From assembly GCF_003334765.1 (NCBI RefSeq), contig NZ_QOWT01000053.1: a stretch of 16,776 bases of DNA; one strand, given 5' to 3'. The first letter of the stretch is position 1; every line of letters begins with the position of its first letter. The stretch is from Escherichia coli. GTDB lineage: Bacteria; Pseudomonadota; Gammaproteobacteria; Enterobacterales; Enterobacteriaceae. The position numbers and the translations under genes are program-made. The notes below the pieces were generated by a model that ran no database searches, was not told where the DNA came from, and was given only the letters and a program-made list of their open reading frames with translations. Shown here piece after piece: positions 1-166 of the stretch.

Positions 1-75
1 CGCGAGGCATCGTCTTAACGAGGCACCGAGGCGTCGCATTCTTCAGATGGTTCAACCCTTAAGTTAGCGCTTATG
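1..75. mobile_element. Partial IS186 insertion sequence, terminal ~75 bp including the terminal inverted repeat; the element continues off the left edge
   Basis: Positions 53-75 read caacccttaagttagcgcttatg, the reverse complement of the IS186 terminal inverted repeat CATAAGCGCTAACTTAAGGGTTG as I recall it. Location immediately downstream of dnaJ matches the K-12 arrangement. A reverse-strand ATG at 8-10 may be the transposase start, but only 3 codons lie in the window. Recognition from memory, not a search. Confidence 0.6.
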
Positions 76-137
76 GGAGTGATCCCCGCCACTTTACAGG
101 TGCTCGCATATCTTCAACGCACCCTATTTTTACCCAG

Positions 138-159
138 GCCTGCCCACGGGCAGGCTTTT
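138..159. terminator. GC-rich hairpin (gcctgccc-acg-gggcaggc) followed by TTTT on the + strand, lying just 3' of the dnaJ stop; likely dnaKJ operon terminator or bidirectional terminator
   Basis: 8-bp perfect inverted repeat at 138-145 and 148-155, T-run at 156-159; dnaJ stop codon (TAA on - strand) is at 167-169. Confidence 0.45.
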
Positions 160-166
160 GGGGAGG

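Follow-up and report, generated by a model that had tools for sequence, protein, structure and literature searches.

A probable detached hokC mRNA tail between dnaJ and an IS186 copy inverted relative to that of Escherichia coli K-12

The window analyzed here, a stretch of 16,776 nucleotides, covers the thr-talB-dnaK-dnaJ region of E. coli, read as the reverse complement. It begins inside an insertion sequence, and only 91 nucleotides separate the end of that element from the dnaJ stop codon. The locus therefore raises two questions: what these 91 nucleotides are, and which insertion placed a mobile element beside them. An earlier reading made from the letters alone (the sequence-only reading) saw here the K-12-lineage copy of IS186, with an outward-reading end lying against the native terminator of the dnaKJ operon. 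Our analysis leads to a different answer, in which we have considerable confidence: IS186 has very probably inserted in the GGGG-N6-CCCC target of the stem-loop that follows the hokC stop codon, detaching the tail of the hokC mRNA, in the reverse of the K-12 orientation and at a site that is a hot spot for this element. The features on which this rests are collected in Table 1.

Table 1. Features of the window, with the basis of each assignment (positions are those of the window).
Feature	Position	Strand	Basis and remarks
IS186 (IS4 family), last 75 nt	1..75	+	Identity to the MG1655 copy; 3' of the transposase stop, no transposase codons
IS186 23-bp terminal inverted repeat CAACCCTTAAGTTAGCGCTTATG	53..75	.	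Exact inverted copy at both element ends in 12 loci
Target-site duplication GGAGTGATCC	76..85	.	10 bp; up to 12 counting ambiguous tip bases
Predicted hokC post-stop stem-loop GGCGGGGA-GTGA-TCCCCGCC, loop and 3' arm only	76..90	+	Fold; intact in empty-site strains
Predicted hokC fbi (fold-back inhibitory) element CTTCAACGCACCC, orphaned	112..124	+	mRNA fold; conserved pairing
Predicted hokC terminator hairpin, core 137-144/149-156, loop CACG, T-run 156-159	133..162	+	Fold; position in paralogs
dnaJ CDS	167..1297	-	Open reading frame list; annotated dnaJ in matching genomes; stop TAA 167-169
tpke11 sRNA family RF02031 (69.6 bits)	1298-1375	-	Rfam; dnaK-dnaJ intergenic region
Thr operon leader RF00506	15155-15274		Rfam

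The first 75 nucleotides are the final 75 nucleotides of the reverse-complemented IS186 copy that adjoins dnaJ in MG1655. That copy is placed at 15387-16732 and named IS186 in PMC3045373, and our use of the name rests on identity to it. A search of 5,426 complete E. coli genomes with window 1-75 (run as 1-78) gave 8,422 matches spread over 2,144 of them, almost all with identity of 99% or above, so that the window begins in a multi-copy element. At each of the 12 occupied complete-genome loci examined, a perfect 23-bp terminal inverted repeat, CATAAGCGCTAACTTAAGGGTTG, bounds a 1,339-bp element on both sides; the window carries its reverse complement. The full element encodes a 370-residue open reading frame, taken from locus L001 and lying outside the window, that matches the IS4 family transposase model NF033592 (133.3 bits, against a cut-off of 115), and the transposase ATG lies 55 nt inside the element tip. 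In strain 300709 the transposase coding sequence ends 96 nt ahead of the equivalent of window position 1, and it reads toward dnaJ. The sequence-only reading had recognized the first 75 nucleotides or so as the end of IS186 with its terminal inverted repeat, and the positions that it gave throughout were correct to within a few bases. Its description of this end as outward-reading is not supported, because what the window holds is the side of the element where the transposase gene finishes, and a consensus scan found no promoter-like site within window 1-166.

The nature of the next 91 nucleotides is revealed by strains that lack the element. In these empty-site strains the equivalent of window 76-166 is contiguous with mokC/hokC, and in the window IS186 intervenes; mokC and Hok-Gef annotations are present at the locus in the compared genomes. 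In an O157:H7 strain, for example, the element is absent and a gap of 103 bp separates the convergent mokC/hokC and dnaJ. Rfam identifies a sok/hok leader (119.5 bits) directly 5' of mokC in an empty-site strain (locus L003, 2687-2839), where the start of the sok model is 7 nt downstream of a TATAAT box. Rfam matches were confined to the sok/leader, tpke11 and Thr-leader families, with no model for a hok 3' tail.

The RNA was folded from the start of the sok model (L003 2687) through the downstream hairpin. In the minimum-energy fold a 12-bp pairing joins the 5' end, GGGUGCUUGAGG, to L003 3038-3050, the equivalent of window 112-124. The pairing of GGGUGCUUGAGG with CTTCAACGCACCC is, on this prediction, the tac/fbi long-range interaction of hok mRNAs. 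The full-length form of hok mRNA is kept inert by pairing of its 5' and 3' ends, and slow trimming of the 3' end to a protective stem-loop activates it (PMC9841398). The post-stop stem-loop of empty-site strains is predicted to have an 8-bp stem and a GUGA loop, and its stem shows compensatory G-C/A-T changes across hok paralogs.

The same arrangement recurs in relatives of hokC. We fetched 80 prophage hok paralogs, with 80–96% protein identity to HokC, which have the order stop codon, GC stem-loop, C(C/T)TCAA(N)GCACCC and hairpin with T-run. Both the 5' and 3' elements were found in 74 loci, and all 12 tac/fbi pairs are kept in 72 of them; the differences seen lie at the predicted bulge (C, T or A) or at G.U-compatible positions only. 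Two-sided covariation of tac and fbi was sought among the 80 paralogs and none was found, the 5' element being nearly invariant. Judged by predicted folding and by conservation, window 76-166 thus consists for the most part of the cut-off 3' tail of the hokC (gef) toxin transcript, a component that the sequence-only reading had passed over.

More widely, over 550 prophage contigs encode close relatives of HokC with the same layout of leader, stem-loop, fbi and terminator (L026-L105), and a minority of them (e.g., L039 and L064) have a GGGG...CCCC stem that could also be an IS186 target. A separate observation concerns the other end of the locus, outside the window: an IS150 in the hokC/sokC leader interrupts the Rfam sok match of two window-type strains and of one empty-site strain (L001 93-1462, L007 93-1462 and L015 1368-2737), and constitutes a second insertion sequence at the 5' end of the locus.

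The last element of the tail is the hairpin, which begins 57 nt past the end of IS186 and lies 5 nt from the dnaJ stop. Its predicted free energy is -22.5 kcal/mol (z = -3.5), and none of 200 shuffled sequences was equally stable. The sequence-only reading had seen both a GC hairpin with a T-run about 60 nt past the element and the dnaJ stop beyond it, and these are real. It had also taken the hairpin for the dnaKJ terminator, and here the strand speaks against it. The four T lie past the stem on the plus strand alone, the sense strand of hokC; on the dnaJ strand AAAA stands before the hairpin and UGGGUAAAAAU after it, so that a U-tract is absent. Moreover, hok paralogs with unrelated neighbors close with the same layout of fbi, hairpin and T-run, which places the hairpin in the hokC unit. 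It may also act in ending dnaKJ transcripts, lying as it does 5 nt from the stop. A scan for consensus terminators called none on either strand in 1-166, where the T-run has four T only, and a literature search for terminator mapping at dnaJ or mokC brought up no mapped 3' ends. No base of the 91 nt from the element to the dnaJ stop differs from the empty-site strains, and therefore whatever terminates dnaJ within them is intact.

The insertion point itself is well defined. The duplicated sequence flanks both ends of the element in 12 of 12 occupied loci and is present as a single copy in empty sites. The empty site, GGCGGGGAGTGATCCCCGCC, starts 7 nt past the hokC stop and contains GGGG-AGTGAT-CCCC; the target hairpin extends from 7 to 26 nt past the stop, and the element starts 22 nt past it. 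A target consensus for IS186 of GGGG(N6/N7)CCCC is credited to SaiSree 2001 and Chong 1985 in PMC6925257. IS186 has landed in its published consensus target, in the form GGGG-N6-CCCC, within the hokC stem-loop. Alignment with insertion-free genomes, a check proposed along with the sequence-only reading, thus yielded a 10-bp duplication and an unaltered stretch up to dnaJ.

Homologous sites have been struck elsewhere. At hokE of K-12 (MG1655, L107 1560-2898) IS186 lies at GCGGGGAGTAATCCCCGC with a 10-bp duplication, GGAGTAATCC, and at a plasmid hokD-like locus (L108 937-2275) it lies at GGCGGGGAGAGATCCCCGCC, again with a duplication of 10 bp, GGAGAGATCC. In both, the element is 21–22 nt past the hok stop, in a homologous GGGG-N6-CCCC stem-loop.

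A search with window 1-400 sorts E. coli genomes into three classes: those that match over the full length, those that match from position 53 (including K-12 derivatives), and those that match from position 75. One genome of each class was fetched, namely strain 300709, the K-12-like strain JME65 and the O157:H7 strain described above. Strain 300709 matches window 1-400 with 100% identity, and its transposase is on the hokC strand, converging on dnaJ. In JME65 the element sits at this position too, and its transposase is encoded on the dnaJ strand. The match of K-12 strains from position 53 only corresponds to the inverted repeat common to both ends. When reverse-complemented, the MG1655 copy agrees exactly with the window-type element (0 mismatches in 1,339 bp). 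The window is thus of non-K-12 origin, and although K-12 has IS186 at this very site and with an identical duplication, the two copies point in opposite directions.

Among the 5,426 complete genomes, the window-type junction was found in 943 (150-nt query, at least 80% covered), the K-12-type junction in 821, a perfect empty site in 3,524 and, in 255, an empty site whose CCCC half-site has a C-to-T change. The four counts total 5,543 against 5,426 genomes, the occupied counts being slightly inflated, and the K-12-type count is further inflated by laboratory derivatives of K-12. The excess probably represents IS186 in paralogous hok loci that pass the coverage threshold, since plasmid matches to window 1-400 and the hokE and plasmid hokD-like loci show that such insertions exist. 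The hokC site is occupied in approximately 30–32% of genomes and in 77–82% of the 2,144 that carry IS186. The two orientations are about equally numerous, and each includes many natural isolates. The insertion is therefore polymorphic and not species-wide, as the sequence-only reading had supposed, with about 70% of genomes empty; the K-12 lineage that it assigned does not hold, given the opposite orientation and the many natural isolates that carry it.

The C-to-T allele of the empty site reads GGGGAGTGATTCCC (versus GGGGAGTGATCCCC), with the change at the equivalent of window 84, which destroys the CCCC half-site needed for the IS186 consensus; this allele was seen in L014, L015, L020, L022 and L023. 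Of the empty sites in our sample, 5 of 8 from IS186-carrying genomes and 0 of 5 from IS186-free genomes have the variant, a comparison with a one-sided Fisher p of about 0.04 in a small and phylogenetically confounded sample. In one genome (BHUCD01) a T-allele site is apparently occupied. These figures are suggestive of a tendency for intact targets to be filled, with the C-to-T variant acting as insertion immunity.

We then considered how both orientations came to be present at one position. Window-type, K-12-type and empty states are intermixed in a neighbor-joining tree built from 3.2 kb of dnaJ-dnaK flank in 20 sequences. Both alleles of an A/T SNP at window 96, 11 bp past the duplication, are seen with the element in either orientation. 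The two most similar members of the panel, AR_0069 (window-type) and 23CRST021 (K-12-type), have opposite orientations on flanks with 0 differences in 1.6 kb on one side and 4 in 6.1 kb on the other (7.7 kb). Opposite orientations on near-identical flanks, together with the interspersed states, require recurrent events at the site, and most simply the hokC site is a hot spot at which both orientations have arisen by repeated independent insertion.

The recurrent events could alternatively be in-place flips of one ancestral insertion, brought about by recombination between the 23-bp repeats, or by excision, precise repair and re-insertion. The closest haplotypes (AR_0069, 23CRST021 and MG1655) are all occupied and differ in orientation, as such flipping would have it, while the nearest empty haplotype is at least 27 differences away. 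Neither the element copies nor the duplications differ between the orientations, and for this reason independent insertion looks the same as inversion or re-insertion in the sample of only 19 loci that bears on the matter. We sought differences in the length of the duplication as proof of independent insertion and saw none, the 12 sampled junctions (six window-type and six K-12-type) being identical, with ...GGCGGGGAGTGATCC followed by CATAAG... on the left and ...CTTATG followed by GGAGTGATCCCCGCC... on the right, save for one G in strain 300709. However, homologous recombination is very inefficient between repeats as short as 23 bp. Elsewhere on the tree, too, occupied and empty states are interspersed, and independent insertion of IS186 at one position in either orientation is documented at the lon hot spot (PMC3045373). 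We consider flipping unlikely on balance and retain repeated independent insertion as the explanation. The exception in strain 300709 is in its left IS186 flank (L001 ~1722-1736), which reads GGCGGG versus GGCGGGG in all other loci; the missing G probably reflects misassembly of a homopolymer, though it may be a genuine 1-bp polymorphism.

The insertion and its consequences can be set out as follows. IS186 transposed into the GC-rich stem-loop past the hokC stop, duplicating 10 bp. The window starts 75 nt inside the transposase-distal end, with the hokC promoter, sokC and the hok frame 1.3 kb away and outside it, and 76-166 is a detached tail consisting of half of the stabilizer stem-loop, the fbi element that would normally silence translation by folding back, and the terminator hairpin. 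Transcripts of hokC would enter IS186, which in the window orientation is the transposase-sense direction, and would lose stem-loop, fbi and terminator, so that mRNA folding, 3' processing and toxin-antitoxin behavior would be disabled. The orphaned hairpin could end transposase read-out before it ran antisense into dnaJ. In the K-12 orientation, it is read-through from dnaKJ that would be sense to the transposase.

Loss of hokC function in the window orientation is an extrapolation from the K-12 allele and from the biology of plasmid R1 hok. In PMC3562002, gef of K-12 is described as hokC with IS186 downstream of the coding region, which is thought to disrupt fbi and processing, and the gef transcript is reported to end inside IS186. 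Between the hokC stop and the transposase ATG, our scan found no consensus promoter or terminator.

A bolder proposal would be that the hokC copy is a privileged master copy of IS186, driven from outside, possibly stress-inducible, and also silencing a chromosomal toxin. The site is filled in approximately 77–82% of carriers, orientations switch between haplotypes that are nearly identical, and the C-to-T skew (5/8 vs. 0/5) has the direction that this proposal would suggest; in addition, the transposase start faces an external promoter either way, with no consensus terminator between them. That promoter would be hokC in the window orientation and the heat-shock dnaKJ operon in the K-12 orientation. 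We regard this as a speculative idea that is probably wrong, and keep to the reading of IS186 as a recurrent insertion in the hokC stem-loop.

The sequence-only reading of the junction as a K-12-lineage IS186A insertion, with an outward-reading end abutting the native dnaKJ terminator, agrees with the presence of IS186 in K-12 at precisely this point, flanked by an identical duplication, and with the position of the hairpin 5 nt from the dnaJ stop. Several observations speak against it. The K-12 match starts at position 53, with the transposase on the opposite strand. The best whole-window matches are human-derived non-K-12 isolates, with approximately 100% identity over 1-16700; MG1655 has 99.8% identity to the window over 53-3300. 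The window-type junction is common to some 940 genomes, the T-run is on the hokC strand only, and window 1-166 is without a promoter-like site. The reading as a whole is accordingly very improbable, and the identity as the K-12-lineage IS186A is refuted on orientation and lineage. It is scarcely conceivable that the junction is an assembly artefact in which an IS186 end was wrongly joined to the dnaJ flank in a window starting inside a repeat: multi-copy IS sequence of about 75 nt (IS186 at 1-75, IS30 at 16701-16776) does bound the window at both ends, as expected of a short-read contig, but the same junction (window 1-150 at 100% identity) is found in hundreds of complete, mostly long-read genomes, which show the full element and the matching duplication on its far side.

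At the distal end of the window, the last 76 nt (16701-16776) are the left end of IS30, with the inverted repeat TGTAGATTCAATTGGTCAACGC... and a transposase ATG at 16763 reading MRRTF. This IS30 interrupts the yjjY-arcA region; the top whole-window matches stop at 16700 and are without the IS30 insertion.

The presence of IS186 in hokC/gef, the hot-spot behavior of IS186 and the control of hok by tac and fbi are all established already, and current understanding is not overturned by our results. Only the opposite-orientation allele and its high frequency are mildly new. Overall, the sequence-only reading was right about IS186, about its polymorphism and about the intact dnaJ side, and wrong about lineage and orientation, and it missed the split toxin-antitoxin transcript. 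For annotation, the stretch between IS186 and dnaJ is best treated as a piece of a severed toxin-antitoxin transcript and not as an accessory of dnaJ; for strain typing, orientation marks the window as non-K-12 despite an insertion that looks like that of K-12. The locus also provides a natural example of sequence-directed IS targeting, in which a conserved hok hairpin has been struck repeatedly, in both orientations, in about 30% of E. coli. Targeting by IS186 probably explains why chromosomal hokC is frequently inactive.

The nearest known system is gef/hokC::IS186 of K-12 (IS186A, MG1655 15387-16732), which has the same element sequence, the same insertion point 22 nt past the hokC stop and the same duplication, and which likewise parts fbi and terminator from hokC. 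The two alleles differ in that the K-12 transposase points in the dnaJ direction, whereas that of the window points in the hokC direction and converges on dnaJ; only a few SNPs separate the flanks of MG1655 from those of the window. The insertions in hokE and in the plasmid hokD-like locus resemble that in hokC in their hairpin site and 10-bp duplication, and differ in being in other paralogs with other flanks, with loops AGTAAT and AGAGAT in place of AGTGAT. Insertion at the lon promoter hot spot is likewise sequence-specific at GGGG(N6/N7)CCCC, at one identical position and in either orientation (PMC6925257, PMC3045373). At lon, however, the target is a promoter and the insertions come from laboratory selections, whereas here the target is the 3' stem-loop of a toxin mRNA and the alleles are widespread in natural isolates. 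Finally, hokC shares with hok/sok of plasmid R1 the order of a 5' tac-like end, Sok target and mok/hok, and likewise closes with a stem-loop past the stop codon, an fbi whose sequence complements that of the 5' end, and a terminator; in contrast to R1, hokC is chromosomal, its elements are predicted ones, and the window has the tail of fbi and terminator alone, with the gene detached.
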